Below, one piece after another: positions 19,671 through 56,603 of a stretch of 64,000 nt of DNA. Origin of the DNA: an uncultured Acidobacteriota bacterium (GTDB lineage: Bacteria > Acidobacteriota > Terriglobia > UBA7540); contig CAWDSK010000008.1 of assembly GCA_963804995.1 (NCBI GenBank), forward strand, positions 32,001 to 96,000. Direction: 5' to 3'. Under the pieces are notes generated by a model. The model searched no databases and was not told where the DNA came from. It saw only the letters and a program-made list of their open reading frames with translations. Within the stretch, counting starts at the first letter, position 1; each line of letters opens with the position of its first letter. The position numbers and the translations under genes were made by a program.

Positions 19671-19792
19671 CTAGTGTAGTGTCCAGGAAATGGCTGGACA
19701 ACTGTGTTGGCCGTAGCGCCGGCATCCTGCCGGCAAATGCCGCCAAGATGGCGGCGCTACGATGTCCAGTTAATTACCGGACACCACACTAG
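19671..19792. mobile_element. MITE with CTAGTGT(A/G)GTGTCC terminal inverted repeats (IS630-like ends) carrying a GTAG REP doublet
   Basis: ctagtgtagtgtcc ... ggacaccacactag (13/14 match); inner gtagcgccggcatcctgccggc..gccgccaagatggcggcgctac at 19713-19760. Confidence 0.75.
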
Positions 19793-19932
19793 AAACCCGC
19801 CCGGTGCCAGGGTGGAAAATTCGGATGGATCGCGACTGCAAAGCGATGGTTGCGCCCGAGGAGGCGGGGTGTATACTGCGGTCGGTGAGGCCTGCCAGAA
19901 GGAAATTTAGGACAAGGAAAGTCGGTGTAACC

Positions 19933-22815
19933 ATGAAAACTCATACTATCTTTAGCCGACTCTGCCAATTCCCAATTCTCAGCCGCGCCGCCGTCACTCT
20001 GGTGGCGTTGGCCGCGCTGGCTTGGAGCAGCCTCGCCTTTTGTGGCGAGATTCATGTCGCGGCTGCGGCTGGCGACGTGGCCAAGGTTCAGGCGCTGCTC
20101 AAAAGCAATCCTGCTTTGGTGTCCAGCCAAGAGCAAAACGGCGCGACGCCTTTGCACTTTGCGGCGTCGGGTGGTTTCAAGGACGTAGCGGAATTGCTGC
20201 TGGCCAACGGGGCCGATGTCAATGCCAAGGACGGCAAGGGCGATACGCCTTTGCACTACGCGGCGTATGGTGGCCACAGGGACGTGGCGGAATTGCTGCT
20301 GGCCCACCACGCCGACATCAATGCCAAGGACAACGAGGGCGCCACGCCTCTGCACGGGGCGGCTTATGGCCACCAGGACGTGGTGCAAATGCTGCTGGCC
20401 CACCACGCGGATATCAATGGCAGGGATAAAAAGGGCGATACGCCTTTGCACTACGCAGCGTTTGGCGGCCACAAGGACGTGGCGGAATTGCTGCTGGCCA
20501 GCAAGGCTGATGTCAATGCCAGGGACGTCAAGGGCGATACGCCTTTGCACTACGCGACATCGGCTGGGCACCCGGACGTAGCGAAATTGCTGCTGGCCAG
20601 CAAGGCCGTGGTCAATACCAAGGATAAGGAAGGCTGGACGCCTTTGCACTGGGCGGTGCGCAATGCCCACAAGGACCTGGTGGTATTGCTGTTGGCCGGC
20701 AAGGCTGACGTCAACGCCAAGGATAAAGACGGTCTGACGCCTTTGCACTGGGCAGCGCGTAATGGCCAGAAGGAGGTGGCGCAATTGCTTCTGGCCAGCA
20801 AAGCCGAGGTCGATGCCAAGGACAACAACGGCCAGACGCCTGTGCACTGGGCGGCTCGTAATGGCCACACGGAGCTGGCGGGATTGCTGCTGGCCAGCAA
20901 GGCCGATGTTAATGCCAGTGACAACGACGGCCAGACGCCTCTGCACTGGGCGACGCGTAATAGCCACAAGGAGGTAGCGCAATTGCTGCGCGCGCATGGC
21001 GGGCAGGACATCGCTAAGCCCAAGCCGCCCGCGCCCGAAAAGCCGAGTACGCCCGGCACTGCGATGGTTGCCACGGACATTGATGACGCGGCCCGGGGAG
21101 GTGATCTGGCAAAGGTCCAGGCGCTGCTCAAATCCGATCCTCGCCTGGTTTCCAGCAAGGACAGCCACGAAAAGACGCCCTTGCACTACGCGGCGGAAGG
21201 TGGCCACAGGGACGTCGCGGAATTGCTGCTGGCCAACGGGGCTGAGGCGAACGCCAAGGATAGTAACGGCTGGACGCCCTTGCACTGGGCGGCACTGTGG
21301 GGCCACCAGGACGTGGCGGAATTGCTGCTGGCCAACAAGGCCGTGGTCGATGCCAGGAACAGTACAAGCGATACGCCTTTGCACTACGCGGCGTCGGCGG
21401 GTTACAAGGACGTAGCGAAATTGCTGCTGGCCAAGGGGGCCGAGGTCAATGCCAAGGACAGCCTCGGCGCGACGCCTTTGCACCTGGCGGCGACTTCTGG
21501 TCAAAAGGAGGTAGTGGAATTGCTGCTGGCCAAGGGGGCTGAGGTCAACGCCAAAGATAATAACGGCTGGACGCCTTTGCACTGGGCGGCAATGTGGGGC
21601 CACCAGGCCGTGGCGGAATTGCTGCTGGCCAGCAAGGCTGATGTCAATGCCAAGAATGGCACAGGCGAGACGCCTTTGCACTACGCGGTGTCTGCCGGTT
21701 ACAAGGACGTAGCGAAATTGCTGCTGGCCCACGGGGCCGATGTTAATGCCAAGGACAACCTCGGCGCGACGCCTTCGCAGGTGGCGACGCGTAATGGCCA
21801 CCAGGACATGGCGGAATTGCTGGGTCAGCCACGCGGTAGGGAAGTCTCCACGCCAACGCCGACCGCGCCGGCCGCCGCCACTGTGGTGACCACCCCACCC
21901 GCGCCCACCGCACCATCCGCCCCGCCCGTGGCGACCACCCCACCCGCGCCCACCGCCCCGACCGTGGCGGCCGCCAAGATTGAGGCGCCCGCGCCGCCCG
22001 CGCCCGTCCAGCCTAGCACCTCTGACACAACGATGGTCGTGGGCGATATTGATAACCTGGCCCGGGATGGCGATATCGGAAGGGTCGAGGCGCTAATCAA
22101 AGCCAACCCTCACGTGGTTCTTAACAAGGACAACCACGATAAGACGCCCTTGCACTACGCGGCGGAGGGTGGCCAGAAGGGCGTGGCGGAAATGCTGCTG
22201 GCCAACGGGGCCGAGGTCAATGCCAAGGACAAGAACGGCTGGACGCCTTTGCACGTGGCGGCGGCTTATGGCCACCGGGCCGTGGCGGAATTGCTGCTGA
22301 CCAGCAAGGCCGATGTCAATGCTCACGACAACGCCGGCATTACACCTTTGCAGTATGCGGCGTCTGCTGGTCACCAGGACGTAGCGAAATTGCTGCTGGC
22401 CAGCAAGGCCGAGGTCAATGCCAAAGATAACAACGGCCAGACGCCTTTGCACTGGGCGGCGCGTAATGGCCACAAGGTCATGGCGGAATTGCTGCTGGCC
22501 GGCAAGGCCGATGTTAACGTCAAGGATAAATACGGCTGGACGCCGTTGGACTGGGCGGCACAAGGGGGCCACCAGGACGTGGCGGAATTGCTGCTGGCTA
22601 GCAAGGCCAACGTCAATGCCAAGAACAGCGCAGGCGCAACGCCGTTGCACTGGGCAGCGCTTAATGGCCACATGGAAGTGGCGCAATTGCTGCTGGCAAA
22701 AGGGGCCGACGTCAATGCCAAGAACAGCACAGGCGTGACGCCGTTGCACTGGGCAGCAGTTTATGGCCACAAGGATTTGGCGGAATTGCTGCGCCAGCAC
22801 GGTGGCCACGAATAG
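19933..22815 (+). CDS. Secreted ankyrin-repeat protein made of three tandem ankyrin modules
   Basis: More than 20 TPLHxAAxxGHxDVAELLLAxxADVNAKD repeats; N-terminal signal peptide; Pro/Thr/Ala linkers. Confidence 0.95.
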   Translation: MKTHTIFSRLCQFPILSRAAVTLVALAALAWSSLAFCGEIHVAAAAGDVAKVQALLKSNPALVSSQEQNGATPLHFAASGGFKDVAELLLANGADVNAKDGKGDTPLHYAAYGGHRDVAELLLAHHADINAKDNEGATPLHGAAYGHQDVVQMLLAHHADINGRDKKGDTPLHYAAFGGHKDVAELLLASKADVNARDVKGDTPLHYATSAGHPDVAKLLLASKAVVNTKDKEGWTPLHWAVRNAHKDLVVLLLAGKADVNAKDKDGLTPLHWAARNGQKEVAQLLLASKAEVDAKDNNGQTPVHWAARNGHTELAGLLLASKADVNASDNDGQTPLHWATRNSHKEVAQLLRAHGGQDIAKPKPPAPEKPSTPGTAMVATDIDDAARGGDLAKVQALLKSDPRLVSSKDSHEKTPLHYAAEGGHRDVAELLLANGAEANAKDSNGWTPLHWAALWGHQDVAELLLANKAVVDARNSTSDTPLHYAASAGYKDVAKLLLAKGAEVNAKDSLGATPLHLAATSGQKEVVELLLAKGAEVNAKDNNGWTPLHWAAMWGHQAVAELLLASKADVNAKNGTGETPLHYAVSAGYKDVAKLLLAHGADVNAKDNLGATPSQVATRNGHQDMAELLGQPRGREVSTPTPTAPAAATVVTTPPAPTAPSAPPVATTPPAPTAPTVAAAKIEAPAPPAPVQPSTSDTTMVVGDIDNLARDGDIGRVEALIKANPHVVLNKDNHDKTPLHYAAEGGQKGVAEMLLANGAEVNAKDKNGWTPLHVAAAYGHRAVAELLLTSKADVNAHDNAGITPLQYAASAGHQDVAKLLLASKAEVNAKDNNGQTPLHWAARNGHKVMAELLLAGKADVNVKDKYGWTPLDWAAQGGHQDVAELLLASKANVNAKNSAGATPLHWAALNGHMEVAQLLLAKGADVNAKNSTGVTPLHWAAVYGHKDLAELLRQHGGHE

Positions 22816-22898
22816 ACTGCGTGGAAACCCAGCCTATCACTTGGCAACAAGCACTTACCGCATGATGCGCATTGCGGGGAACTAATGGAAGTTCATCC

Positions 22899-23030
22899 TT
22901 TCAGGCTCTGCCCCACCTCGATCACCAGGCATTCTCACGTGAACACATCCACGACGGTCAAAGCACGGAACCGCCGCCCGCCGGCCAACTGATCCGCCAC
23001 GAAGTTCAAACTTCAAACCTGCTTCGGCAA
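22899..23030 (-). pseudogene. IS3-family transposase (integrase core) fragment with in-frame stops
   Basis: Minus strand reads PKQV*SLNFVADQLAGGRRFRALTVVDVFT*ECLVIEVGQSLK, matching the IS3 OrfB WSxDFV.D....GR.FR.LTVVD..TRECL motif. Confidence 0.85.
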
Positions 23031-23065
23031 TTTGGACGCTGCACGGTCAACCCAAGCGCCTGAGG

Positions 23066-23202
23066 GGTAGTGGTGCAATTTGACGTAGAGGCGGCGGCAT
23101 TCATCCCGATCTGATCGGGACGCCGCGCTTGTGTAGAGGCGGCTTAACGCCGCCATATGGCGAGGTAAACTCGCCGCTACAACATCAAACTGCACCACTA
23201 CC
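23066..23202. mobile_element. MITE with GGTAGTGGTGCA terminal inverted repeats and 8-bp target duplication, carrying REP cargo
   Basis: GCCTGAGG direct repeat at 23058-23065 and 23203-23210; sister copy at 54837. Confidence 0.85.
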
Positions 23203-23357
23203 GCCTGAGGCAAGCCCTTAAACTTCGTGTCGATGCCGTGATACACTCATTTCGGCATACGTTCTTGACGGGGTTAGGCGCGATAAACAGTCTGCCTACT
23301 GGTACAAGGACGGACCGCGAAATCGTGACTACCAAAAAAGTCTTTTAGAATCATCGC

Positions 23358-23446
23358 GCGGGGGTGGCGGAACTGGTAGACGCAAGGGACTTAAAATCCC
23401 TCGGCCTGCGAAGGCTGTGCGGGTTCGATTCCCGCCCCCCGCACCA
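23358..23446 (+). tRNA. tRNA-Leu(UAA)
   Basis: Acceptor GCGGGGG/CCCCCGC-A-CCA, D-loop TGGTAGAC, anticodon loop CTTAAAA, long variable arm, GGTTCGATTCC. Confidence 0.97.
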
Positions 23447-23492
23447 CATCCATCCGTACAGTTTACTGATTCGCGGCGACAAGGAGAGAGTC

Positions 23493-24822
23493 ATGGCGAA
23501 GACTCAAGGGGCAGGGCTTGGCAAGTCGCGCCAAGGTGGCGTGGTTTTAGCTTTTATCCTGGCGATTGTAGTGATCTCATCGAACGCGCGAGCCGGCCAG
23601 TTTCGCGCCTCCGTAGTCAAAGTCGATATCACCCCGGACAAAACCGCATGGCTGAAGGGTTATGACGCGCGGCAATCGACCGGCGTGCACGATCACATCT
23701 TCCACCGCATCGTGGCGATGGACGATGGGAAAACCCAATTCTTCCTCATCTCGACTGAACTCGTTTCCTTCTCGCCTTCCATCTACGACGAGGTCACCAA
23801 AAAGCTTGAGGAGGAGACGGGAATCAAACCCGTCCAGGTATGGTGGACGGTGACGCACACGCACTCCGCGCCGGAGGTGGGGCCGCCTGGGCTGAGCGGA
23901 GTCTTCATGGCCAACCGCTTTAAGCACGCGCCGGACACTGAGTACACGGCTCACCTGGAGAGGCAATTGATTGATGGAATCAAGGAGGCGCGGCAGAAGC
24001 TCGAAGCCCGCGCGGCTGGGGGTCGGCCGGGGATTCGCGCGCGCCAACATTAACCGCCGAGCGCGAAATGAAGACGGCCCGGCGTTTCTGGGCTTGAACC
24101 CGGACGGCCCGACGGACCGGCAGATCGGACTGATCCGTTTAGAGAAAGCCGATGGCACGCTGCTGGCCCTGGTTGCCAACTATGCCATGCACGGGACGGT
24201 GCTCAGCGGCGCGAACACACTGATCAGCGGCGACGCGCCGGGCGCCGTGGCGGAATACGTCCAGCAGAAACTGGGCGCCCCGATGCTTTACATTCAAGGC
24301 GCGGCGGGCAATCAGGCCCCGATTTACACCGTCTATCCCGATTTCCGCAGCGGGCACTTGAAGGCTTTTGAAGTGCTGCTGGGTGACCCCATCATCGAGG
24401 CTAATGCGCGCCTGGGCCCCACGACTTCAGATGTCGAGCTCACACTCGGTGACACCATCGTTGAGACCCCGCGCAAGGCCGGTATGGGATGGGCGCCCGA
24501 CCTTGGCAACTACCTGCGCACGACCAGCGCCGGAACCGCGATGGTTCGCCTTCCCGTGCGCTTCTTGCGAATCAACAAGGACATTGCCGTTTGGGCGGCC
24601 CCTCTGGAGCTGTTCTGCGAAATCTCGATGGACGTACGGAACCGCTCGCCTTTTCCCTATACGTTTTATTTTGGATATTGCAACGGCGCGCTCGGCTATC
24701 TTCCCACCCGGGCGGAATTCGCCCACGGGGGTTATGAGCCGGGAGTCTCTCCCTTCACCGAGCAGGGAGGGGAAGACCTGGAGCGCGCGGTGCTGAATTA
24801 CCTGAACGGATGGGTGCGGTAG
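23493..24822 (+). CDS. Neutral/alkaline ceramidase N-terminal-domain family secreted hydrolase (frameshift near 24010)
   Basis: KVDITP..GY..R.STGVHD, THTHSAP, NRR, NYAMHGT..ISGD and GYLPT...GGYE. Confidence 0.85.
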
Positions 24823-24830
24823 CAATCCCT

Positions 24831-24971
24831 TTTGGAGTGCGGCAGCTCGCTGCCGCTTTCTCCGAGGCCAGCTCGCTGGCCGTCCGTAGATAGGGTCTGA
24901 GGCGATGGCTGCCGCGAGCGACCTCGCGGAAAGGAAAGCGGCAGTCCGCCGCGGCGGACCGCACTCCGAAA
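24831..24971. repeat. TTTGGAGTGCGG-family palindromic element between convergent genes
   Basis: tttggagtgcggcagctcgctgccgcttt ... aaagcggcag...ccgcactccgaaa. Confidence 0.85.
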
Positions 24972-24973
24972 CT

Positions 24974-26394
24974 TCAAACCTTCTCAGGAACCACGAAGGG
25001 CGCGCGGTAGGCGCCGCGCAGCAGGCGATTAGCCTCCTCATCTCCAATCACTTGTTCGGTGGCAGGATCAAAGTTCAGCGTGCGGCCCAGGCGGTAGGAC
25101 GCATTGGCCAGATGCACCAGCGTGCAGGAGTAGTGTCCCTCTTCGATCGGCGCGTGGAGATCTTCCTTCTTCCGGCTGCGCACCGCGTCAATGAAATTCG
25201 CCCAGCAACTGCCATCCTGTTGATTGCCGGAGGGGCCGGGTTCCTGCTCGGGTCCCAACCAAGTCCGATAGAAATCGTGTCCCCCGTGAGCAATGGCCAT
25301 GTACCCCTTGGGCCCATAGAAAATATCCCCCACGACTTGCCCTGAAAACTGGCGGCGGTGCTCGCTGCGAGGGTCGGGGTAGCCCTGGAAATTCGGGATG
25401 ATAAGGCCGAACCCGGGCGTGTCGATTTCCGCTTCATGATTGGTGATCCAGTGCCGCACTTCCATCACCAGCAACTTGCGCTTGCCTTCGGGCATATCGA
25501 ACTGGAAGGTGCAATTGAGCGTGTTGGGCGTCTCCTGGTCATCGTCAAACATGAAGTGTCCACCGATGGCGGAAACCTTGTTGGGGAACTTGACTCCCAG
25601 CCCCCAGCGCGCCACGTCCATGTAGTGGATGCCCTGATTGCCCACGTCGCCGTTGCCCGTATCCCAGAACCAATGCCAGTTGTAGTGGAAGCGATTTTGG
25701 GTGAAGGGCTTTACCGGGGCGGGGCCAATCCAAAGGTCGTAATCAACGCCGCTTGGAACCGGCTCGACCGGAGCGCGTCCAATACTGGGGCGTTTGCAGT
25801 AGCAAATCCCGCGCGCCATGTAAACGTCGCCCACCACGCCCTCTTGAAGTTTCTAAACGCCCTCCCGCACGGCTGGACTGGTTCGCAGGTTGGTGCCGTG
25901 CTGCACCATGCGATTGTATTTTGACGCGGCTTTCACCATTTGATGCCCCTCCCACCAGTTGTGGGAGCAAGGCTTCTCAACGTAAACATCCTTGCCGGCC
26001 TGGCACGCCCAGATGGCGATGAGCGAGTGCCAGTGATTGGGGGTGGCAATCGAGATGACATCAAGGGAGGTGTCTTCCAGAAGCTTGCGAACATCGACGA
26101 AGGTTTTGGGTCGAGGCAGGCCCATCTTTTCCATGTCGGCAAGACGGTTGTTCAGGATGTTCTCGTCGACTTCGCAGACGGCGGCAACCTCAACGTTCGA
26201 CACTCCTGCATACTCTTCGACATGCAAAAAACCCTGCCCGCGCAATCCCACTACTGCAACCCTGACCCGGTCGTTCGCGCCAAAAACTCGCTCCGGCCGC
26301 GTGAGGAAGGTGATTCCCGCGAGCGCCCCCAGGCCCGCTGCGGCGCTGGCCGATGTGTTTGGAGTCTCTCAACTATTATTCGTCTCGTTGCCAT
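24974..26394 (-). CDS. Gfo/Idh/MocA family oxidoreductase, probably Tat-exported (frameshifts near 25845, 26255 and 26360)
   Basis: IATPNHWH, ACQAGKDVYVEKP, VDYDLWIGPAP, HYNWHWFWDTGNGDVGNQGIH; MATRR N-terminus. Confidence 0.88.
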
Positions 26395-26515
26395 CCATCT
26401 TTGTGAATACCTCCGTGCGGCAGTTGGCGATATTACCCGATTCTGCGGGGAAAGAGAAAATCGATATACCGGGAACCGCGTCCGCCGGAGGTAGACGAAT
26501 GGTTCGAGCCAGCGG

Positions 26516-26660
26516 GTAGCGCAGACGTACGCGTTGTTTGCGTTCGTCTGCGGCCCTTCAACGGTCCATGGAATGTCCTCTTTGGATGTTGATGCCATGG
26601 TTGATGTTTCCATGTTAAGAACCGCGGAGGAAGGCAAAAGGCGCCTACCTCCGCGCTACC
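26516..26660. repeat. Inverted pair of GTAGCGC(A/G)G REP units (REPIN-like)
   Basis: ggtagcgcagacg..cgtctgcgg ... ccgcggagg..cctccgcgctacc. Confidence 0.7.
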
Positions 26661-26735
26661 CGCTCTCGCTTCACGTCATTGCATTGACACCAAATATTCC
26701 GAGTGATATAGGAAACAGACCCAGGGGCAGGAATC

Positions 26736-27752
26736 ATGTGGAGGTGTGTTTTGACAAAGACAAACGCCGGGTGTGTGTTTCCCCTTCATTCTGATCGGCG
26801 CTTTCGTCTGCACGCGAGGGGGTGGGCGCGTGCGTCAGCGATCCTCTTGTCAGTGGTCTTCTCGGTCGCCCTGGGGGTCGGGACCTCATACGCGCAAATG
26901 AGAGACGTGGCGCAAAAGCTGGGGTATCCCGCCGATTCGAAGCTTCTGATCATTCAGGCGGATGATGTGGGGGTCTACCACGCGGCAGATCTCGCGAGTT
27001 TCACCGCGCTCAGCCAAGGGGCGGTCACTTGCGGCACTGTCATGATGACTTCCCCCTGGCTGACGGAAGTCGCGCAATTTGCGAAGCAACATCCGAACCT
27101 CTGCCTGGGGGTCCACCTGGTGCTTTCCAGTGAATACGATACTTATCGCTGGGGTCCAGTGGCGCCCAAGGATCAGGTGCCCAGTCTACTTGATCCCAAC
27201 GGTTACATTTGGCAACATGGTTCCGACACGGTCAGTCACGGCAAGCCCGCGGAAATCGATCGTGAAATTCGCGCCCAGATGGACCGCGCCTTGCAAATGG
27301 GTTTTCAACCCGACTTTGTGGATAGCCATCAAAGAGCACTGATGTCCAATCAGGAGCTTTTCCAGATTTACATGAAGGTCGCGCACGACTACAAGCTGCC
27401 TTTCCTGGGGGGGCGGGACCGGGCGACCGGGGGGAGTTTCGTCCCCCTGCTTTCCGATAAAGACGTCGCAGTCGATTCGGTTATTGTCATTTCCTCAACC
27501 ACTCCTCCCCAGGATTGGATGGGGTTTTACACGCGCGCCGTGAAGGCACTCAAACCCGGGCTGTACCAGCTTTACGTCCACCTGGACTTTGATAATGACG
27601 AAGCAGAGGCGGTTTCCGTAGACCACACTGCCTATGGCGCCGCGTGGCGTCAGCGCGATTTCAACGTGATGACGAGTCCGGAATTCAAGAAGGCCTTGGA
27701 AGACAATCACGTCATTCTGGTCACTTGGAAAGATATAAAGAAAATTATGTAA
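26736..27752 (+). CDS. YdjC/ChbG/HpnK family carbohydrate deacetylase (start uncertain)
   Basis: LLIIQADDVG, GVHLVL, EIRAQ and VDSHQ motifs. Confidence 0.85.
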   Translation: MWRCVLTKTNAGCVFPLHSDRRFRLHARGWARASAILLSVVFSVALGVGTSYAQMRDVAQKLGYPADSKLLIIQADDVGVYHAADLASFTALSQGAVTCGTVMMTSPWLTEVAQFAKQHPNLCLGVHLVLSSEYDTYRWGPVAPKDQVPSLLDPNGYIWQHGSDTVSHGKPAEIDREIRAQMDRALQMGFQPDFVDSHQRALMSNQELFQIYMKVAHDYKLPFLGGRDRATGGSFVPLLSDKDVAVDSVIVISSTTPPQDWMGFYTRAVKALKPGLYQLYVHLDFDNDEAEAVSVDHTAYGAAWRQRDFNVMTSPEFKKALEDNHVILVTWKDIKKIM

Positions 27753-27768
27753 CCGAGGAGACGCATTA

Positions 27769-28599: not shown

Positions 28600-29150
28600 A
28601 CGTGTAACCTTTCCGTTCTGGGACGGCGAACACCTGGCTTCACCGCACGGCCACCTTTTTGCCTTGCGAATCCGCATTTCAATCCCACGTTTTCGTCAAG
28701 TGGGACATGTCCCAGAAGTTGCGCTCCCAGCGCCTTAGCGCGCGAGGTCCCACCAAATCCTCCACCTTCATGCTCTTTTTTCCTATGGCATTTCGAGTGT
28801 GGTTCCGCCGCGCCAAGCTCCAGCTTTCGCCCCGATTTTTGAGGCGGAAACTCCCCCTCTTTCTCATCAAGTTTCACACCGCAGCCATCACAGCTTCACA
28901 TGGCGCCTCCATAATAATTGTTAGTCCCTCACTTGCGCGGCAGTTTGGTGTATAATCGCAAACATCGGGGAAAGCAGGATAGAAATCGCGGCCCACTCAG
29001 ACCGCTGCACGTGCTAACAGGGAACCACCGCTACTAACGGCCGGGCTAAGCGGACCAGGACCGATGTCGGCAGGTGGCTTAGCTCCTTTCCCCACGGGTA
29101 GGAATCTTCGAAATCAAACTCGTCTAAACGTCCAGAAGGGGACTTCGGCC

Positions 29151-36870: not shown

Positions 36871-36995
36871 TGGCAGGTTACGCAGGTTTTGCGGATTAAA
36901 CAAGGTGCTGGGCGGTGGGGGGCTGGGGACTAGGGACTGGGGTCTAGGTGCTGGCTCGATCCCCTTGTCCCTTTGTGGTGATGGGGCAGGAATCA

Positions 36996-37535
36996 CGTAG
37001 CGCGGTCCCCCGTTTTTGGGGTCCGCGGTTCTTCGCTAGATTCGTGGATCTGATTCTGCGACGAACCCCCTCACCCGTCCCGCCCCGGCTGGTGAAAGCG
37101 CCGGCGGCGGTCCACCCTCTCCCCCCGGAGAGGGCTATGAATCAATTTGCAGGCTTTCCATACGGGCGAGGGCGAGAACCCAGCGAACTAGCAACGTAGC
37201 GCGGTCCCCCGTTTTTGGGGTCCGCGGTTCTTCGTTAGATTCGTGGATCTGATTCTGCGACGAACCCCCTCACCCGTCCCGCCCCGGCTGGTGAAAGCGC
37301 CGGCGGCGGTCCACCCTCTCCCCCCGGAGAGGGCTATGAATCAATTTGCAGGCTTTCCATACGGGCGAGGGCGAGAACCCAGCGAACTAGCAACGTAGCG
37401 CGGTCCCCCGTCTTTGGGGTCCGCGGTTCTTCGCTAGATTTACGCGTCCCAATTCGAGGGCAGATCCCTGTGGTCAAGGTTTGCAGTATTTCGCGAGAAG
37501 AGCCGCAGACCTCAACCGCGGAGGTCTGCGCTACG
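36996..37535. repeat. Tandem array of a 199-bp composite REP unit (2.2 copies) closed by an inverted REP
   Basis: Unit starts at 36996, 37195 and 37394 (cgtagcgcggtcccccgtttttggggtccgcgg); closing gaggtctgcgctac near 37521-37534. Confidence 0.92.
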
Positions 37536-38198: not shown

Positions 38199-38435
38199 CG
38201 TAGCGCGGTCCCCCGTTTTTGGGGTCCGCGGTTCTTCGCCACAATACGTTCGCTCACTTGGCGCACGAAGAACCGCAGACCTCAACGGGAAGGTGTGAAA
38301 AAATACCATTTTCACCGCTGAGTCGCTGAGACGCAGAGAAATGACCCTTTGTTTTCAAACCTCTGCGCCTCCGCGTCTCCGCGGTGAAAGGTTTGATGGG
38401 ATTTTTTCACAGCTTCCGGCGGAGGCCTGCGCTAC
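38199..38435. repeat. REPIN-like inverted REP pair whose right arm is interrupted by a MITE
   Basis: gtagcgcggtccccc..gggtccgcgg ... ccgcagacctcaa[insert]cggaggcctgcgctac. Confidence 0.85.
38289..38416. mobile_element. 128-bp MITE with GAAG(G/C)TGTGAAAAAAT terminal inverted repeats and CGG target duplication
   Basis: Ends match 15/16; CGG at 38286-38288 and 38417-38419. Confidence 0.8.
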
Positions 38436-44086: not shown

Positions 44087-44092
44087 CCGGCC

Positions 44093-45071: not shown

Positions 45072-45109
45072 CCGGCATCATGGCAACGTTGAAGTCGTAG
45101 GAGACGAGA

Positions 45110-49153: not shown

Positions 49154-49229
49154 ACGGGGAAGCTCCCCAGGTTTCCAGCCTAATCGGTTCGGAAGCAGAC
49201 GTGGTGATAGGCAAGGGGGGGGCTCCGCC

Positions 49230-49270
49230 CTATATCGAAGGTTATAGTGCCTCTATATCTTAGGGGATAG
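49230..49270. promoter_or_regulatory. Two tandem 18-bp imperfect palindromes, likely NarL-type regulator boxes
   Basis: CTATATCGAAGGTTATAG (49230) and CTATATCTTAGGGGATAG (49253). Confidence 0.6.
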
Positions 49271-49841
49271 TTCTGGATAGCTCCTCAGTCCAATTGATTC
49301 TTGCCTGTCTTTCGGCAAACAATAGGCACAATTGATATGCGGGTGGTGGCGACACCGTTAGTGGTGATGTGAGCCTGTGTGCGTAAAAAGCGAGGGGGTG
49401 TAGGCATTGTTGTGCGACCAACAAAATCTCCCAAAGGGAGAGCCTACACCCTCAAAGCGACACCAGAAGTGATAGATATTTTTCCTTGCTCTCCCGAACC
49501 CTGTAGCCCCGCTTCAGGATTCAGAGGGATTGAAAGTGGGGTCTTGGTAACCCCCCAGTTTGAGGACGGGCCCCAGTAGTTGCAAAGTTTGCCCCCCTCG
49601 CCCGGATCGATATTTCGGACCACCCTCCGTCCTTCGCACCGACCGAGGGCCGCGAAATCGACCCAACGGCGCCCTTTCCGTGCCTCTAGGGGAAGGGGAT
49701 ACCGAAGGACGGGCGAGGGGGGACTCCGTAGGTCAAGGCTTGAAATTGCGTTGATTACCGATCGGTCTCAGAGGCTCCCACCGTTTCCCAACACCGCGAA
49801 GTAAAAGTGGCAGTTCCCAAGCGCGGAGGAAATTTCGAACC

Positions 49842-50648
49842 ATGGCAGCCGGAGGCGGAATTACGGCAGCGGGACAAATCTTGACGAACCGCGCCGGAAC
49901 ACGGCCCCGTTTAGGTCTTGCCACGGATGAAGCGAGAGCTCGAGCCCGGCGCCGGCATATCCTCTCCACCGATTTCCAGGCAATCTACGAACTGTACCAG
50001 CGCCGAGTTTTTTTGTGGTGCCTCCGCATTGCCCGGAACGTGGAGGACGCAGAAGATCTTACCCAGGATGCTTTCCTGCTCTTGTTCCGCAAAATCAATA
50101 CCTATCGAGGTGAATCGGCATTCTCTACGTGGTTGTATCGTTTGGCGACGAACATTTCCCTGATGCGGCTGCGGAGGAAGACCTTTTCACAAGTCCCGCT
50201 GGACGAAGTTCTTGATATCCAAGAGGGCGCGATTAACCCCTGCTATGAACTCAGGGCCTTTGATCTGACCCTGGCCGCATTGATTGCGCGGGTAGATCTG
50301 GGGCGCGCGCTCCCGCAGATGCCGGGTGGCTTCAAGACCGCTTTCTTCCTGCACGACAGCGAAGACTACTCACACTCGGAAATTGCTGAACTTACCGGTT
50401 GGTCGACGGGAACTTCCAAGTCACAATTGCATAAGGCGCGCCGGTGGCTGCGGCAACTGCTGAATCGCACCACGGTGGAGGCGAAATCCCAGACGACTCG
50501 CCGTAAATTGCCGCGCCGACAAAAGCCTGGGATGAGAGTGGCCGCGCCGACCCACCCAGCGGGGAAGCGTGGCACGGGAAACGTCGTTGGGACCCCCGGG
50601 CTGCCGCCCGGCCCTAACCGGGTCGAAAATGAAACTTGGCTCTGTTAG
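49842..50648 (+). CDS. ECF RNA polymerase sigma factor (start uncertain)
   Basis: AEDLTQDAFL..FRKI..YRGESAFSTWLYRLATN; YSHSEIAEL.G...GTSKSQLHKAR. Confidence 0.92.
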   Translation: MAAGGGITAAGQILTNRAGTRPRLGLATDEARARARRRHILSTDFQAIYELYQRRVFLWCLRIARNVEDAEDLTQDAFLLLFRKINTYRGESAFSTWLYRLATNISLMRLRRKTFSQVPLDEVLDIQEGAINPCYELRAFDLTLAALIARVDLGRALPQMPGGFKTAFFLHDSEDYSHSEIAELTGWSTGTSKSQLHKARRWLRQLLNRTTVEAKSQTTRRKLPRRQKPGMRVAAPTHPAGKRGTGNVVGTPGLPPGPNRVENETWLC

Positions 50649-50980
50649 TAACTGTTCGACGCCATGCCAACCAGTGGCGAATCTGCTTGCCTGGTCCCTT
50701 GCGAGCCCGACTGAAGAGGCAAGTCATCGTGAGCCCGAATCGCCAACGTTATTGGCGCGAAAATCTGTTGGAGATTAGCCTGAGTCTCATCGGGGTCTTG
50801 TGCCTGGCCGCCATGCTGGTAGCCTACCTAACCCAATGTTCATAATCATCACGCCGGCTTCCTCAGGCAGCGGAAATAACCGCTAAGGGATGATTCACCA
50901 TCTTGCCGTTTCATGAGTTCGAGTCCGAAGTCACCGGCGGGGTGCCCATTGCCCGGTGAGTGGCTGGGCAGGCAAACGCA

Positions 50981-51145
50981 ATGCAACGTCACGAGTGCCC
51001 CAAGTGCGGTAGCATGAATCTTTGCCTCTCGCGGCGGCGAGGTTGGGTTGATCGGTGGATTTTTGCCCGGTTCTTTTATCAACCTCTGCGCTGCATGGAC
51101 TGCAATACCCGCTTTTACGTCTTCCTCCGCCGTTCCCACTCCTGA
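50981..51145 (+). CDS. Small zinc-ribbon protein (54 aa)
   Basis: CPKCGS...SRRRG...PLRCMDCNTRF. Confidence 0.75.
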   Translation: MQRHECPKCGSMNLCLSRRRGWVDRWIFARFFYQPLRCMDCNTRFYVFLRRSHS

Positions 51146-51160
51146 CTCCCTGCCCTCACC

Positions 51161-51285
51161 GAGGTCTGCGGTTCATCGTGTGTTAGGAGAGCGAATGTAT
51201 CGTGGCGCAAAGGCCGCCCGCGTTTAGGATTCGCGGATTTTTTAGATGAAGAACCGCGGACCCCAAAAACGGGGGACCGCGCTAC
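51161..51285. repeat. REPIN-like element with degenerate left arm
   Basis: gaggtctgcggttc ... gaagaaccgcggaccccaaaaacgggggaccgcgctac. Confidence 0.75.
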
Positions 51286-51354
51286 GCTTACTGCTGCCAT
51301 TTGCCCCCTTGCGTGCGTCACACAAATGAGGATACGTTGTAGGGGGGGTGCTTA

Positions 51355-51756
51355 ATGCACAAGATATCTGTGGCACTATTATTCTCATGCTTGCTCCTGT
51401 CGATTCCCTTACGGGGGCAGGAAGTTTTCATCCGTGACAACAATCAGGCTGCGGTTCAAGCCAAAACCTCTCTTGAGAAGTTCACGCGCTACAAACTGAG
51501 TGGTGATGCCACGCATTTGATCCTGCTGGTGGAGGAACAGTCGTGGAGCCCGGATATGCTGAACCCTGCCACCGTCGCCATCAGCATGAAGCTGATATCT
51601 CCGCGGGGGGAACTCTTGTGGGGCAAGACTGAGCCGATTGGTACGCGCTCCAAGGAGACGACGATTCAAGACCTCTTGAAGGAGCTCGGCGAGGCCAAGC
51701 CCAACTTGGGAAAGAAACCTGCTGGGGGCGCAGAGCAAAACCGCACCGGCCAATGA
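51355..51756 (+). CDS. Secreted hypothetical protein
   Basis: Signal peptide MHKISVALLFSCLLLSIPLRG. Confidence 0.7.
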   Translation: MHKISVALLFSCLLLSIPLRGQEVFIRDNNQAAVQAKTSLEKFTRYKLSGDATHLILLVEEQSWSPDMLNPATVAISMKLISPRGELLWGKTEPIGTRSKETTIQDLLKELGEAKPNLGKKPAGGAEQNRTGQ

Positions 51757-51813
51757 CGGCACGACGCAGGTTTGGACCGACTCCCTGCCAGTGATTCGAC
51801 CGAGGTATATCCC

Positions 51814-53453
51814 ATGATCCACCCGCGCGCCGGACTGCCCCCCGACCCTAAGCTGCTGGTCAACGTTCCCCGGCTCGTTACCGCCTACTACGCCGTCGAG
51901 CCTGACCCCACCGTGGCGGCGGAGCGCGTGGCCTTCGGGACCTCCGGGCATCGAGGATCTTCTTCTCGAGTTCCTTTAACGAAGCCCATATTCTTGCCAT
52001 CAGCCAGGCCATCGCAGACTATCGCCGCCAGCAGGGCATCGACGGCCCACTCTTCCTGGCCAAAGACACCCACGCCTTATCAGAGCCCGCTTTCGCCACG
52101 GCTCTGGAAGTTCTGGCGGCCAACGGCGTCACCGTGATGATCGATCAGGATGACGGCTACACGCCCACCCCTTCTTTATCCCATGCCATCCTGACATTTA
52201 ACCGGGGCCGTAAGACCGGGCTTGCCGATGGCATCGTGATTACGCCCTCGCACAATCCTCCTGAAGACGGCGGTTTCAAGTACAACCCTCCGCATGGAGG
52301 TCCGGCGGATACGGGCGTCACCCGCTGGATTGAGAATCGCGCCAACGCTTTCCTGGAACAGGGGCTGAGCGGCGTGGCACGAATTCCCTATGAAAAAGCC
52401 CTGAAGGCTTCAACCACTCGCCGCTACGACTTCGTGAGCGCCTACGTCAACGACCTCGGCGCCGTCGTGGATATGTCCGCCGTCAGCGGCGCGAAACTCA
52501 AGCTGGGTGTGGACCCCCTGGGCGGGGCGGGAGTGGCCTACTGGGGACGCATCAGCGAGCGCTACGGTTTCCCCCTGACGGTTGTGAGCGACGCCGTCGA
52601 CCCCACCTTCCGCTTCATGACTTTGGACTGGGACGGCAAGATCCGCATGGACTGTTCCTCGCCCTACGCCATGGCCCGGCTGATCGCGTTGAAGGACCAG
52701 TTTGACGTGGCTTTTGCCTGCGACACGGACCACGACCGGCATGGGATTGTGGCTCGCAGCGCGGGATTACTGAATCCCAATCACTACCTGGCCGTAGCCA
52801 TTTCTTACCTCTTCGGAAATCGACCCGGCTGGCCCGCAAATGCGGCGGTGGGCAAGACGCTGGTGAGCAGCAGTATGATCGACCGCGTCGCGAAACACCT
52901 GGGGCGAAAATTGCTTGAGGTGCCGGTGGGTTTTAAGTGGTTTGTTGATGGCCTGCTTGACGGAACCCTCGGATTTGGCGGCGAAGAGAGCGCTGGGGCC
53001 GCCTTCCTGCGGCGCGATGGCAGTGTGTGGACTACCGACAAAGATGGTTTGATCATGGGCCTGCTGGCGGCGGAGATGACTGCCCGCACCGGCCGCGACC
53101 CCGGGGAACTATACCGCGACCTGACCCGGCAATTCGGCGATCCCGTCTATGAGCGCATCGATGCTCCGGCCACCCCTGAGCAGAAATCCGTCTTGCAGAA
53201 GCTCGCGCCCACCCAGATGCCGGCCACGGAGCTGGCGGGGGAAAAAATTGAGTCCATGCTGACGGTAGCCCCCGGCAATTCCCAACCGATTGGCGGCCTG
53301 AAAGTGGTGGCTGCTAATGGATGGTTCGCGGCTCGTCCCTCCGGCACCGAGGACGTTTATAAGATCTACGCTGAGAGTTTTCTGGGCCTCGACCACCTGC
53401 GCAGGATTCAGGCGGAGGCGAAGGGAATCATCGACCACCTGCTGGTGTCTTGA
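51814..53453 (+). CDS. pgm: Phosphoglucomutase (frameshift near 51960)
   Basis: [35 protein letters not shown] and ARPSGTE. Confidence 0.95.
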
Positions 53454-53481
53454 ATCAGAAATCCGTTGATGCGCCAGCCGG

Positions 53482-53802
53482 CTTGTCTGGTAGCGCGGTC
53501 CCCCGTATTTGGGGTCCGCGGCACTTCGTACCCACAATCCCCCAATACGGGCGGCCGCTTCGCCTCGCTGCATTTGCTCAATTGGCATAGGAAGAACCGC
53601 GGACCTCAACCACGGAGGTCCGCGCTACGCTGGCTCGTAGGGGCACCCTTGTCTGGTAGCGCGGTCCCCCGTATTTGGGGTCCCGCGGCACTTCGTACCC
53701 ACGATCCCCCAACACGGGCGGCCGCTTCGCCTCGCTGCATTTGCTCAATTGGCATAGGAAGAACCGCGGACCTCAACAACGGAGGTCCGCGCTACGCTGG
53801 CT
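53482..53802. repeat. Tandem duplication (period about 166 bp) of a REPIN-like unit
   Basis: cttgtctggtagcgcggtccccc... at 53482 and 53648, each closed by ggaggtccgcgctacgctggct. Confidence 0.92.
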
Positions 53803-53941
53803 ATGAATGGAAATTAACTCCGCCCTCTTTCGCCGTGGCGACCGAGAGCTAAGAATTTAATTCGGCGCCCTACGGGCGATTTTGAGTTTTGCCTTTTGCC
53901 TTTTGCCTTGTCCTTGCGGCCCCGCCGCGTTGCGTTCCCCC

Positions 53942-54661
53942 CTACCCACCTTCCCGCCTTTGGCAAAGGGCGTAATGCGCGGGGGCAGAGTAGTTGACGA
54001 TGCCTGGGGCGAGCAGCAGGTTGAGAAGGATCTTAGGCAGGCGGCCCCCGTACTTGAAGCGGATGAACTCTTCGGTCAGAAGCTGGACGTTCGCGAAGCG
54101 CTCCGCGAGCAGCTTGCCGAGTTCATTCCTTTCAAATCCCGCGTGGGCGCCCAACTCATTGCGAAACTTCCCCTGCGCCCGAGCTTTCCAGTCCGTCAGG
54201 TTCCAGGTTATCTTCTGCCAGGTGGTGGCATCGGCGGAGCCCAAATATCCGACCGCGCGCGACCGGTTGGGAACCCCCACGTAGAACCAGCCGCCCGGCC
54301 GCAGGACTCGCCGGACTTCGTCCAAGGCCCGACCGGCATCTCCGACGTGTTCAAGGGAATGGAAGGCCGCCACGAAATCGAAAACGCCGGAAGGGAAGGG
54401 GAGGCGTTGCGCGTCGGCGCGGAAGAGGCAGCGCTCCGCGCGGGCCGCCGGCGAAAACCGGTCAGCAATATCCAGCCCGAATACCCGGTGGCTCGCGAAG
54501 GCGCGCCGCAAGTAAACGGCCTCATTCCCGTTCCCGCACCCGACCACCAAGCCCCACAACAACTCGTGCGCCGGGAGACGCTCACCCAGCAACCGGCCGC
54601 CGTGGTGCACCATGTCGGCTACGGGAATTTCCTCGGGACTTGACAGCTTACTGTCGATCAT
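53942..54661 (-). CDS. Class I SAM-dependent methyltransferase
   Basis: LVVGCGNG, ADAQRLPF..GVFD, HSLEHV and RVLRPGG. Confidence 0.9.
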   Translation of the reverse strand: MIDSKLSSPEEIPVADMVHHGGRLLGERLPAHELLWGLVVGCGNGNEAVYLRRAFASHRVFGLDIADRFSPAARAERCLFRADAQRLPFPSGVFDFVAAFHSLEHVGDAGRALDEVRRVLRPGGWFYVGVPNRSRAVGYLGSADATTWQKITWNLTDWKARAQGKFRNELGAHAGFERNELGKLLAERFANVQLLTEEFIRFKYGGRLPKILLNLLLAPGIVNYSAPAHYALCQRREGG

Positions 54662-54836
54662 GGGCTAAGTCGCGGATCTCTCCCTTCGAGAGGGCCGGTT
54701 TCTGCCGCCGTCAAAATGGCCAAGCCCCGACCGGCGGCGCATCGCTCAACGGTCTAACCCCGAGCTCACCCCTGCGCCCGTGACGGGGTTGCCAGACTAC
54801 AAATCTTACTTCAAAAATCCATGTCCGTCATGCTTC

Positions 54837-54946
54837 GGTAGCGGTGCAGGTTGATGTAGAGGCGGCGGCATACATCCCGATCTAATCGGGACGCTGCCAT
54901 ATGGCGAGGTAAACTCGCCGCTACACCATGAAACTGCACCACTACC
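54837..54946. mobile_element. MITE, sister of 23066-23202
   Basis: ggtagcggtgca ... tgcaccactacc; flanks CATGCTTC/TATGCTTC (7/8 target duplication). Confidence 0.82.
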
Positions 54947-55306
54947 TATGCTTCCCTCAGTAAATTGAAGTTTTAGGGGGGCAGCGCGAGGCTCGGGCGA
55001 AGTCTCGACTTGGGGCAGGGAAGGGCTGCGAGTTTTGCACAGCTACGTCTGATAATGTTTTTGTCGTGGGATTGCGAGTTAACATAATGTGATTTGCACA
55101 AAACGCACCGAGATTTCCACACATCTCAACCTGCGCTTTCCTTTTCTTCACGTAACATGCTGAACAATATGGGCGAAAATGATCTGCTGCGAATCGGGTA
55201 GGCTGAGGAAAAAGCCCTAATTTTGGCAAACACCGGTGCTAAAGGGAACACCACACAGACGCCAGAGGTGGCACGGTAACTACCCCGTCGCCTCCGGCGC
55301 CACCGT

Positions 55307-55455
55307 AACCACCCCGGCGCTCGGAGCGCCACCCCTCCTAATTTAGGAGGGGAGTTTTTCCGGAACTCCCCGCCTCAGATGAGGAGGGGTGGCGCGCCAT
55401 GCCCCGATAACGCGTTCTTTCCAAATTGATCATCGGGGCCGAGCGCCGGGGTGGT
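55307..55455. repeat. ACCACCCC...CCCCTCCT-family palindromic element
   Basis: accaccccggcgctcgg ... ccgagcgccggggtggt with internal cccctcct/aggagggg hairpins. Confidence 0.8.
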
Positions 55456-55510
55456 GCTGACTGCGTTTTTTCTCTTCCCGCCGGCGGGCGCGTGTGCTAA
55501 CTTTATGCCT

Positions 55511-55526
55511 TGTCGGCGCGTCGACA
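55511..55526. promoter_or_regulatory. 16-bp palindrome TGTCGGCGCGTCGACA (copy 1 of 3)
   Basis: Same motif at 60079 and 63340. Confidence 0.6.
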
Positions 55527-55537
55527 TTGGCCATCGA

Positions 55538-56283
55538 ATGCCTCTGCGGGAAACAGAAGCCATCGTCCTCAGAACCTACCGCCTGAGTGAAGCAGACAAG
55601 ATAGCTTCGCTTTTCACCCGACAACTCGGTCGGCTGAGGGCTGTGGCCCGGGGAGCCCAGCGCCCCAAAAGCCGTTACGGCGGCACGCTCGAACCCTTAA
55701 GCCATGTGCGGCTCTGGATTTTCGAGCGCGAGAATCGGGACCTGCTCCACCTGAATTCCGTGGAACTCCTGGAGTCCTTCTTCGATATGCAGAAGGATTA
55801 CCGGGTGCAACTGGCGGCGAATTTCCTGGCGGAAGTGGCTGAGCATCTCCTCCCCGAGCGCGAGGTGAACGAGCGCGCCTTCCGCCTGCTTTTGGCTGTG
55901 CTCCGGGCCCTGAAACAATCGGGGGAAGTCAACCGGCCGCTGCTCTATTTCGATTACTGGATTCTGCGGCTGGGTGGGGTCCTGCCCGATCTCGTCACCT
56001 GCTCCGCCTGCGGGCGAGAGCTGGGGAAGAAGGCGGCTCCTTCGGGGCGGGTTCAGAAGGCCTGTTGTGCCGTGAGTGCCGCGTGCCGGGTGCGAACCAA
56101 AGGGTTTCCGGCACAGCCCTTGCCATGGTCCGAGGTGTTTGCCAGGCCCCCCTCGACCGGTGGCTGGCCCAGGAAAAAGCCCCTCCCGGATGCCGAGAGG
56201 CCCGGCGGTTTTTTGAAGCCGTCATCGAAAGCCACTTGGAACGGAAATTAATTACGCGGGCGATGATGGAGGAGGAAGTTTGA
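55538..56283 (+). CDS. recO: DNA repair protein RecO (frameshift near 56035)
   Basis: TEAIVLRTY.LSEADKI..LFTR..G.L.AVARGA..PKSRYGG.LEP; Zn-finger CSACG...CREC. Confidence 0.93.
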
Positions 56284-56330
56284 GGGAGGAGCGAGGAAGG
56301 AGCTAGAAGCTAGGAGTTAGGAGCGAGAAG

Positions 56331-56541
56331 CTAGTGTGGTGTCCCGTGCTAGAGTTGACAATGGGTAGAACCCCCTCACCCGTCTGGCCTCGGCTGATGA
56401 GAACGCCTCGGCCAGCCACCCTCTCCCCCAAAGGGGCGAGGGCAAGAGAATTAACTCTCCCCTCGCCCCTTTGGGGGAGAGGGGCTGGGGGGTGAGGGGG
56501 TCGGACAGCCTTGTCAAATATTAACCGGGACACCACACTGG
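56331..56541. mobile_element. MITE with CTAGTGTGGTGTCCCG ends carrying a CCCTCACCC-family REP doublet, inside an inverted heptamer pair
   Basis: ctagtgtggtgtcccg ... cgggacaccacactgg; flanking GAGCTAG-type arrays at 56299-56330 and 56542-56581. Confidence 0.8.
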
Positions 56542-56603
56542 CTTCTTGCACTTAGCTCCTAGCTTCTAACTCCTGGCTCCTACCAAGCCAAAGGATATTC
56601 ACC

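Follow-up and report, generated by a model that had tools for sequence, protein, structure and literature searches.

INTRODUCTION

Among bacterial MITEs, the pneumococcal RUP elements, with IS630-Spn1, and the Correia/NEMIS elements have a cognate insertion sequence (IS) (PMC2229807, PMC3184786). The elements that we describe here resemble them in being short and non-coding, in sharing terminal repeats with an IS, in duplicating their target, in having many intergenic copies, and in forming a long stem-loop. As those MITEs are presented in the accessible parts of the two articles, ours differ in the interior, which is not IS derived but is a palindrome from a family that has free copies and is common to unrelated IS families. 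The closest precedent for a palindrome-cored MITE is an IS630-like element in the dsrA intron of Candidatus Thiomargarita nelsonii, which encloses a long hairpin more often found alone in that genome (PMC4853749). In the accessible text of that report it is a single family, without a parent IS, and is not read as the capture of an independent repeat. In contrast, our composites draw on four IS families and several core classes and persist across a whole bacterial family. BrickBuilt, a MITE of Porphyromonas gingivalis, has a hitchhiking minisatellite as its interior (PMC4596501). It too is a MITE with an interior made of another kind of repeat, but the accessible description is of tandem 23-mers rather than REP/REPIN-type palindromes and of one shell type.

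Systems built on REPs are similar in other respects. As with the REPINs and RAYT/TnpA-REP enzymes described in the accessible parts of earlier work (PMC3116915, PMC3733652, PMC6006769), three of the five cores studied here are inverted pairs of REP arms tagged with a tetranucleotide, and the genome has 14 Y1 matches. Here, however, the arm pairs lie within DDE-type ends with target duplications. A preprint, in its accessible part, separates slow, long-lived REPINs from fast, short-lived MITEs (bioRxiv 10.1101/2021.07.10.451892); against that division, the composites reported here are recently amplified yet common to eight genera. Several ISs target REPs, namely, IS1397, IS621, IS1594, and ISPpu9 with MITEPpu9 (PMC3184786, PMC12288879). 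Our C-type elements likewise enter REP loops with a 3-bp duplication, but the nesting in the accessible accounts is the reverse (an IS inside a REP), which accounts for the site of our element C128 and not for its cargo. In a full-text search covering the main texts of non-subscription papers, we found no description of REP- or REPIN-cored MITEs common to several IS families. Similar nesting may be described in a 2008 study of small repeats dispersed in cyanobacterial genomes.

RESULTS

Five MITEs in the window. We analyzed a 64,000-nucleotide stretch of DNA from an uncultured Acidobacteriota bacterium (the window), for which the original prediction had described five short elements with paired IS-like inverted ends. 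We located all five, at 19671-19792, 23066-23202, 38289-38416, 54837-54946, and 56331-56541; they range from 110 to 211 bp, and each is flanked by direct repeats. Two are IS630-type MITEs (type A): A122 (19674-19789 once target bases are removed), with terminal repeats of about 27 bp and a 2-bp duplication, and A211 (56334-56538 on the same basis), with a 2-bp duplication containing 1 mismatch. Two are IS1-like MITEs (type B): B137 (23066-23202), with terminal repeats of 17 to 18 bp and an exact 8-bp duplication (23058-23065 and 23203-23210), and B110 (54837-54946), with an 8-bp duplication containing 1 mismatch. The fifth, C128 (38289-38416), is an IS1182-type MITE (type C) with 16-bp terminal repeats and an exact 3-bp duplication. 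It occupies a REP hairpin loop; the hairpin, which it splits, is the second of a host REP doublet (38199-38434, limits approximate). A211 splits an outer palindrome of heptamer repeats (56293-56579), and the end coordinate of 56581 originally given belongs to this host palindrome, not to the element. We also shortened the terminal repeat first quoted for type A: its first three bases are best taken as target site, because trimming them gives a 2-bp direct repeat in 57 of 66 copies. When we folded the end-trimmed interiors and compared them with shuffles, the z scores were -5.1 (A122), -5.5 (B137), -5.9 (C128), -4.9 (B110), and -9.2 (A211). We concluded that the five elements are real MITEs.

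As predicted, the window contains no cognate enzyme: 21 query proteins gave no transposase, RAYT, DUF559, GxxExxY, or GIY-YIG match there, and a Pfam scan of 37/176 window ORFs (at least 100 aa) found none of the same classes. We rejected a structured RNA family, since Rfam at the gathering threshold yielded only one tRNA in the window. Artefact or chance was rejected by the copy numbers, by the duplications relative to their nulls, and by occurrence in congeners.

Traces of transposition. Genome-wide, we found an exact 2-bp duplication in 57/66 type A copies (null, 7.6%), an exact 3-bp duplication in 72/89 type C copies (null, 1.7%), and an 8-bp duplication that is exact in 34/73 type B copies and has at most 1 mismatch in 48/73 (null, 0.01%); the copies counted are clonal rather than independent, and some of the B copies (39 pairs) were initially chosen by their 8-bp repeat. 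The C-type elements land in REP loops with their 3-bp duplication. The empty sites proposed as a check were found as well. Of the type C copies, 35/89 have a paralogous counterpart that is empty and shows an exact overlap of 3 bp, and the C128 type has 47 empty paralogous sites. The orthologous comparison covered A211 alone, which is missing from the recO-glyQ gap in 5/5 congeners, where the regions are not alignable base by base. Of the same-length copies, 4/21 in one case and 4/35 in another are identical to the window copy, counting the window copy itself. We concluded that amplification is recent.

Shells and candidate parent ISs. We found autonomous ISs whose ends and duplication lengths match those of the shells, among them the IS630, IS1182, and IS1-like elements anticipated if the shells have parents, and the IS630, IS1182, and IS5 transposases exceed their NCBIfam cut-offs. 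The IS630 elements L064, L115, and L117 score 262 to 264 bits (cut-off, 100). The two ends of A122 differ from those of L115 at 4 and 4 of 27 positions, and those of A211 differ at 10 and 10 of 27. The nearest ends to A211 are those of L117 (9 and 4 of 27 positions differ), and its exact parent was not found among the IS ends compared. The claim that the elements at 19671 and 56331 are one shell with different cargo thus does not hold; they belong to distinct IS630 lineages. The ends of C128 differ from those of the IS1182 element L145 at 1 and 0 of 16 positions. L145 and L163 are 2050 bp, score 391 bits (cut-off, 270), have a 3-bp duplication, and target REP loops as most C copies do.

For type B, the ends of B137 and B110 differ from those of L105 at 1 and 0 and at 2 and 1 of 18 positions, respectively. 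We call these shells IS1-like because the parent transposase has IS1 as its best match, although at 52 to 56 bits it is below the cut-off of 100, and the IS1 and IS6 Pfam matches are weak. The 8-bp duplication is found both in the B-type MITEs and in nine distinct full-length elements with these ends; members of the IS1 family duplicate 8 to 9 bp. We rejected IS1595 as the parent of the shells with 8-bp duplications, since the full-length elements that have such ends are IS1-like by score. The best-matching autonomous ISs sit in congeners and not in this 92%-complete assembly, which itself has only IS relatives at 47 to 68% protein identity and C ends 2 to 3 mismatches off.

The 20 bases just inside the ends of B137, C128, and A122 have 13 to 16 mismatches relative to the closest parent, and free palindromes match the interior. 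As originally proposed, the interiors are thus not transposase remnants, and the shells are almost nothing beyond terminal repeats. None of the IS ends that we inspected belonged to a full-length IS with a core beside the end. We rejected the idea that a single IS end folded back to give type A, because the left and right ends there retain the features that set the two ends of L115 apart; for type B, such an origin is still a candidate. On these sequence comparisons, the window MITEs are probably near-bare IS ends around a foreign palindrome, likely copied as a unit in trans by matching DDE transposases.

Cores and their free relatives. The cargo had been described as REP-like in every element. 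We found that it is REPIN-type in three: the cores of A122 (19713-19760), B137 (23085-23180), and B110 (54856-54924) are extragenic, have sharp boundaries, and consist of inverted REP arms with a tetranucleotide tag at both outer ends. The B137 core contains that of B110 and an additional 27-bp segment. In contrast, the cores of C128 (38312-38388) and A211 (56369-56502) lack tetranucleotide-tagged REP arms and are other classes of palindrome, the first, made of octamer repeats, from a class that accompanies GxxExxY genes and the second from one that accompanies DUF559 genes.

Each interior family had also been said to occur free in the window. This was true of four elements but not of A122. 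The B110/B137 core family has a free arm at 1787-1820 on the minus strand (91% over 34 bp). The C128 core family has a free member without terminal repeats at 63231-63307 (80%); a free core relative was also located at 63232-63265, within these coordinates. The A211 core family has free members at 15322-15381 (plus strand), 37065-37124, and 37264-37323. Allowing each arm up to 4 mismatches, we found no free copy of the A122 core in the window. Genome-wide, one of its arms is present 11 times and the other 6 times outside the listed shells, and in congeners the core is free or within IS1-like shells. BLAST matches of free copies span the cores and stop short of the ends.

Genome-wide census. 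Enrichment of palindromic cargo in shells was borne out: a core from a palindrome family is present in 256/286 shells by BLAST, and by folding, 220/288 shells have a structured interior versus 11/200 non-coding background stretches. Long shells with inspected ORFs contain other ISs. Three core families occur in shells of unrelated IS families, namely, the DUF559-type core (66 in IS630 shells and 6 in IS1-like shells), REPIN-c (19 in IS5 and 4 in IS1-like), and REPIN-d (10 in IS1-like and 1 in IS1182).

This sharing bears on whether these are ordinary MITEs with native internal inverted repeats, the free palindromes being decayed MITEs. According to the accessible part of one article on the subject, bacterial MITEs generally form long stem-loops (PMC2229807). 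Decay is visible in the B110 family, where 15 of 60 full-length cores retain one end and 17 lack both; about half of these 17 show shell remnants as judged by eye, and the direction, capture or decay, is therefore ambiguous for this family. However, core boundaries are sharp, 16/20 full-length B90 cores have no ends, there are more than 230 free DUF559-type loci, and across the phylum the C128 core of distant relatives lacks the shell at 29/29 loci. That shells from unrelated IS families can contain one and the same core largely refutes native inverted repeats, and we consider this explanation very unlikely.

Ends and cores across relatives. We found that one core-shell composite recurs in eight genera and that junction geometry is constant within a composite across genera. 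In two of the three families tested, cross-species identity was 90.0% and 91.9% for cores, 78 to 82% for ends, and 53 to 58% for spacers; in the third, A211, the contrast was weak (core, 92.9%; ends, 88 to 92%), and all of these figures are biased by BLAST ascertainment. A variable triplet matches between the two B ends in 45/72 copies, where shuffling expects 10.9, a concordance that could partly stem from clade structure. One core is surrounded by three B end types. Among C copies at the target of the 1769-bp IS of this genome, 5/9 bear the end of that IS, versus 0/48 at the other target.

The core may instead be a selected part of the MITE, a hairpin that joins the ends, gives minimum spacing, or makes the insertion innocuous by acting as a terminator or an RNA-stability element, so that cored shells out-replicate others. 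The cores in 256/286 shells, the length of at least 87 bp in every multicopy shell type, and the conservation of cores above that of ends in two of three families all fit this. Against it, H99, an uncored element of about 100 bp with an unstructured interior, has 13 copies. In all, 30 shells have no recognized core, and some of these are multicopy (13, 11, and 3 copies); the core is therefore not required. We regard selection on the core as an improbable explanation on its own, and it is compatible with hitchhiking, to which it only adds selection.

Enzyme genes near cores and empty shells. The original prediction allowed for palindromes that either hitchhike in shells or preferentially colonize them. 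Hitchhiking is supported, because cored shells prevail and both matching autonomous ISs and empty sites exist. Preferential colonization is not supported. We found a single empty shell, of 49 bp, and no others elsewhere in the genome, in the additional loci examined, or in 28 congeners. It matches the 120-bp IS5-type element without the REPIN, and the junction shows a 4-bp overlap. Preferential colonization could reflect a two-enzyme shuttle, in which RAYT or palindrome-associated nucleases actively place cores in empty shells and later remove them, shells are thus favored targets, and both systems act on one element. The 49-bp shell is consistent with such a shuttle, but its 4-bp overlap equally fits a slippage deletion. 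The many different cores that begin 0 to 8 bp inside B-type ends and the conservation of cores across genera are also in keeping with it, whereas the fixed junction geometry within a composite is what one capture predicts.

The enzyme genes gave a mixed picture. One of the 14 Y1 transposase (RAYT) matches in the genome is flanked on both sides by REPIN-c relatives. However, core relatives lie within 500 bp of only 2/14 RAYT matches (74 to 85%, other core types), which is not above chance (7.7%), and the cores of the window elements are not among the best matches listed beside RAYT genes. Active coupling of the two mobility systems, as first proposed, is not supported by these data, and neither is a link to RAYT. 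Cores are adjacent to 3/4 DUF559, 2/6 GxxExxY, and 1/4 GIY-YIG matches (chance, 5.8%, 1.1%, and 0.03%, respectively), but a GxxExxY gene is nearby in only 1/29 distant C128-core loci. Taken together, we think that a two-enzyme shuttle is unlikely. We also rejected shells that are themselves autonomous and encode a RAYT or a nuclease, since the core matches beside the 28 enzyme matches are all outside shells.

DISCUSSION

Our preferred model is that IS ends captured foreign palindromes. According to this model, a palindrome would land inside an IS or an IS deletion derivative, and the IS interior would then be lost down to the terminal repeats. Such capture would have happened several independent times, in at least the IS630, IS1182, IS5, and IS1-like lineages. 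The DDE transposase of a matching IS would copy the whole element, with the palindrome hitchhiking along. The composite would persist because its ends drift or convert toward whichever related transposase is present; the entire element can fold as one hairpin, and therefore both ends would be corrected together. The core would be under a constraint of its own. Aged shells would decay to free palindromes, which would become landing sites for further elements.

A broader proposal is possible, and we offer it tentatively. The composites may be chimeric, long-lived replicators in which a constrained core is combined with exchangeable IS ends that are retuned jointly to the available DDE transposase. 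They might outlive their parent IS across the family, be the main route of spread of some REP families, and seed landing sites for ISs, MITEs, and introns.

REPINs (slow, old, and RAYT driven) and MITEs (fast, short-lived, and DDE parasitic) are usually described apart. The majority of the MITEs in this genome are hybrids, repeatedly built from four IS families. One caution is that DDE-driven copies can confound REP counts and REPIN duplication rates. REP-type palindromes would gain a second route of spread without RAYT, which may explain the dispersal of palindrome families without a demonstrated mobilizer and suggests a means by which MITEs persist across genera.

Five short elements with foldable interiors lie between genes

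We found all five of the short elements described in the original prediction: A122 (positions 19671-19792) and A211 (56331-56541), with IS630-type ends; B137 (23066-23202) and B110 (54837-54946), with IS1-like ends; and C128 (38289-38416), with IS1182-type ends. The source assembly is 7.55 Mb long and 92% complete. All five elements are intergenic. With their ends stripped, the interiors gave folding z-scores of -4.9 to -9.2, and five subterminal stretches of parent ISs gave -2.2 to +1.3. The absence of a cognate enzyme from the window held up: none of 21 query proteins (transposases, reverse transcriptases, RAYTs and nucleases) had a match there. Two other claims had to be revised. The elements at 19671 and 56331 had been assigned the same shell (paired terminal repeats) and instead represent two distinct IS630 lineages, whose ends match different parents. 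Every core (the palindrome enclosed by a shell) had been assigned to a family found free in the window, and free copies of the A122 core are absent from it.

A 1003-aa ankyrin-repeat gene (19804-22815) has A122 upstream and B137 downstream, and a tRNA gene (Rfam; 23358-23443) lies 155 bp downstream of B137. The window also holds tandem arrays at 36995-37440 (199-bp period; REP doublets and DUF559-type palindromes) and 53488-53802 (167-bp period; REP doublets), as well as heptamer repeats in large inverted arrays at 8608-8984, within the span of a predicted ORF. About 1.2 kb beyond the left edge, a DUF559 gene adjoins an A229-type palindrome (G000:C8:30445-30756).

The elements bear footprints of DDE-type transposition

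Searched for genome-wide, the three end types yielded 61, 10 and 92 pairs. Among copies with exact ends, a set enlarged by BLAST, a 2-bp direct repeat flanked 57/66 A copies (random rate, 7.6%) and a 3-bp repeat flanked 72/89 C copies (random rate, 1.7%). An 8-bp repeat flanked 34/73 B copies (48/73 at no more than 1 mismatch; random rate, 0.01%), a figure that is inflated because 39 B pairs were originally gathered using an 8-bp filter. Because C elements insert into REP hairpin loops, an empty paralogous site overlapping by exactly 3 bp exists for 35/89 C copies; C128, the copy in the window, has 47 of them. Amplification was recent: copies identical to the window copy, itself counted, made up 4/21 of same-length A211 copies and 4/35 of same-length C128 copies, and most same-length copies of both differ at <4% of sites. 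We concluded that the five elements are real transposed units.

We also looked for empty sites in congeners (other genomes of the genus). The recO-glyQ gap (window 56251-56604; loci L067-L071) lacked A211 in 5/5 of them, in gaps that cannot be aligned base by base. The aligned congeners carry a different short-repeat palindrome there, which suggests that palindromes of this kind take each other's place at this site.

Shells match the ends of full-length insertion sequences

In 29 congeneric genomes we searched the surroundings of related transposases (three sets of 30 loci) and found full-length ISs with shell-matching ends and duplication lengths among the congener loci. The C128 ends differ from those of the 2050-bp IS L145 at 0-1/16 positions, and L145 and most C copies have the REP-loop target in common. 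The B137 and B110 ends differ from L105 at 0-2/18 positions, A122 from L115 at 4/27 at each end, and A211 from L117 at 4 and 9 of 27. With NCBIfam models, the IS630 and IS1182 parents scored above the cut-off and the B parents fell near IS1, below it. These IS1-like parents (L062, L063, L079-L108) are transposons of 2.1-3.6 kb that have one ORF and carry passenger DNA; they may form an unnamed subgroup. The window's own assembly holds five 1769-bp IS1182, two 1164-bp IS630 and two IS1-like elements, with only 47-68% protein identity to the best-matching congener elements tested. In the three elements compared, the 20 bases directly inside the ends had 13-16 mismatches to the parent, so the shells amount to little more than their terminal repeats.

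The triplet in the middle of the B ends varies among copies; within a single copy, both ends have the same triplet in 45/72 cases (shuffle mean, 10.9; maximum, 21). The largest core cluster has three end types, with 15/22 copies concordant by eye, and several end types match different autonomous elements. C copies at the target of the 1769-bp element carry its end in 5/9 cases, against 0/48 at the other target.

Cores exist independently of their shells

As had been expected, most shells are cored: we found a palindrome-family core in 256/286, a count that leaves out two 100-bp IS4-type elements, both uncored. Folding z-scores were -4 or lower in 220/288 interiors versus 11/200 rough non-coding background stretches; the copies are clonal, so core counts are descriptive rather than independent trials. 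In every cored type examined, free BLAST matches span interiors and never ends, and uncored types had no free BLAST matches. DUF559-type cores occupy 66 IS630 shells and 6 IS1-like shells, REPIN-c cores 19 IS5 and 4 IS1-like shells, and REPIN-d cores 10 IS1-like shells and 1 IS1182 shell. In congeners, A122-like cores occur within IS630 shells, within IS1-like shells and free. This sharing across IS families is the strongest evidence that the cores are foreign. The C128 core was matched in 34/300 other genomes of the phylum, and 0/29 of the loci examined there had a shell. By ends, duplications and copy pattern, the elements are of the MITE class, and their interior is non-classical; that they are nothing but ordinary MITEs is very improbable.

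Among 60 full-length B110 cores, 28 are flanked by both ends, 15 by a single end and 17 by neither, and about half of the endless cores show shell remnants by eye. Spreading in this family may fall mainly to the shell, with many of the free copies likely left over from shells.

The 30/286 shells with no recognised core include a 99-bp element whose interior is unstructured, present in 13 copies (G000:C1:401469-401567 and 12 others). It makes a 4-bp duplication, 12/13 copies lie within a repeated palindrome that has dozens of empty paralogs, and we found no parent IS for it. The ends of a 118-bp element (G000:C5:74425-74542 and 10 others) also occur on a 1645-bp IS, of which there are three copies. 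The internal inverted repeat of the 118-bp element is weaker and AT-rich, and has zero free BLAST matches. The sole empty shell found in the genome and 28 congeners was a 49-bp IS5-type shell that matches the 120-bp type once the REPIN is taken out, the overlap being 4 bp; insertion and slippage deletion fit it equally. The IS ends inspected included no case of a core adjoining the end of a full-length IS, and scanning without bias for inverted ends that have duplications of at least 3 bp yielded no further large MITE family. At G000:C6:1795477-1797002, A211-type ends enclose a 330-aa ORF, which presumably resembles a housekeeping enzyme, in a possible MITE-bounded composite.

Composites recur across genera

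A211 and A122 composites are present in many congeners, and B110 had matches in 40/48 family genomes besides this one. From 29 of these family loci we recovered nine complete B elements, six with an 8-bp duplication at no more than 1 mismatch; together with L088, they come from 8 genera. In 1.2 Mb from three congeners, partly picked near known matches, 10/11 shells had hairpin interiors, new shell-core combinations included.

Across species, mean pairwise identity in A122 was 90.0% (core), 77.5-79.3% (ends) and 53-58% (spacers). The corresponding values were 91.9, 79.9-82.2 and 55% in B89, and 92.9, 88.0-91.7 and 72-73% in A211, for which two rows are duplicated. BLAST ascertainment favours the core in this comparison; the B89 arm absent from the query was conserved too. 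Selection of the core for a function, a reading compatible with capture by an IS, seems to us quite unlikely.

Nearby enzyme genes

A free core lies within 500 bp of 3/4 DUF559 matches (chance, 230/4000), 2/6 GxxExxY matches (44/4000) and 1/4 GIY-YIG matches (1/4000). The corresponding figure for RAYTs was 2/14, not above chance (307/4000). We regard an active RAYT shuttle of these partly REPIN cores as unlikely.

Relation to known systems and a model

Similar layouts may occur in cyanobacterial genomes. Published descriptions cover long stem-loop MITEs and REP-targeting ISs (PMC2229807, PMC3184786), as well as a MITE containing a minisatellite (PMC4596501). Like the present elements, one IS630-like MITE has a hairpin that also occurs alone, and more commonly so (PMC4853749). 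Other work treats REPINs and MITEs as distinct classes (PMC3116915, PMC3733652, PMC6006769, bioRxiv 10.1101/2021.07.10.451892), the last with REPINs long-lived and MITEs short-lived. Within the texts returned by a full-text search, we found no description of palindrome-cored MITEs common to several IS families; DUF559 and palindrome-type terms co-occur there incidentally, and GxxExxY and repeat terms in unrelated settings.

The composite structure, the footprints and the repeated pairing of shells with cores are observed. Their origin was probably capture: a palindrome would come to lie within an IS or derivative, the IS interior would be deleted down to the ends, and the composite would be amplified in trans. 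Most speculatively, the ends might be kept matched to available transposases by correction on the hairpin template and by recombination with nearby IS ends; at L104, an element directly adjoins its IS. Decay of the ends would return palindromes to the free pool, where they could again be targets. C elements are found within REPs that B shells carry, and other ISs are found inside A and B cores. Among the cores of this genome (L027, L028, L034), DUF559-type palindromes contain a 1390-bp IS4-type element, B310 cores a 1.75-kb IS1182 and REPIN-d cores a 1765-bp element; a group II intron (L020) has ~40 copies. The palindrome-cored MITE architecture is well supported, and by their sequences the elements would behave as ordinary MITEs that have REPINs and other palindromes as their body.
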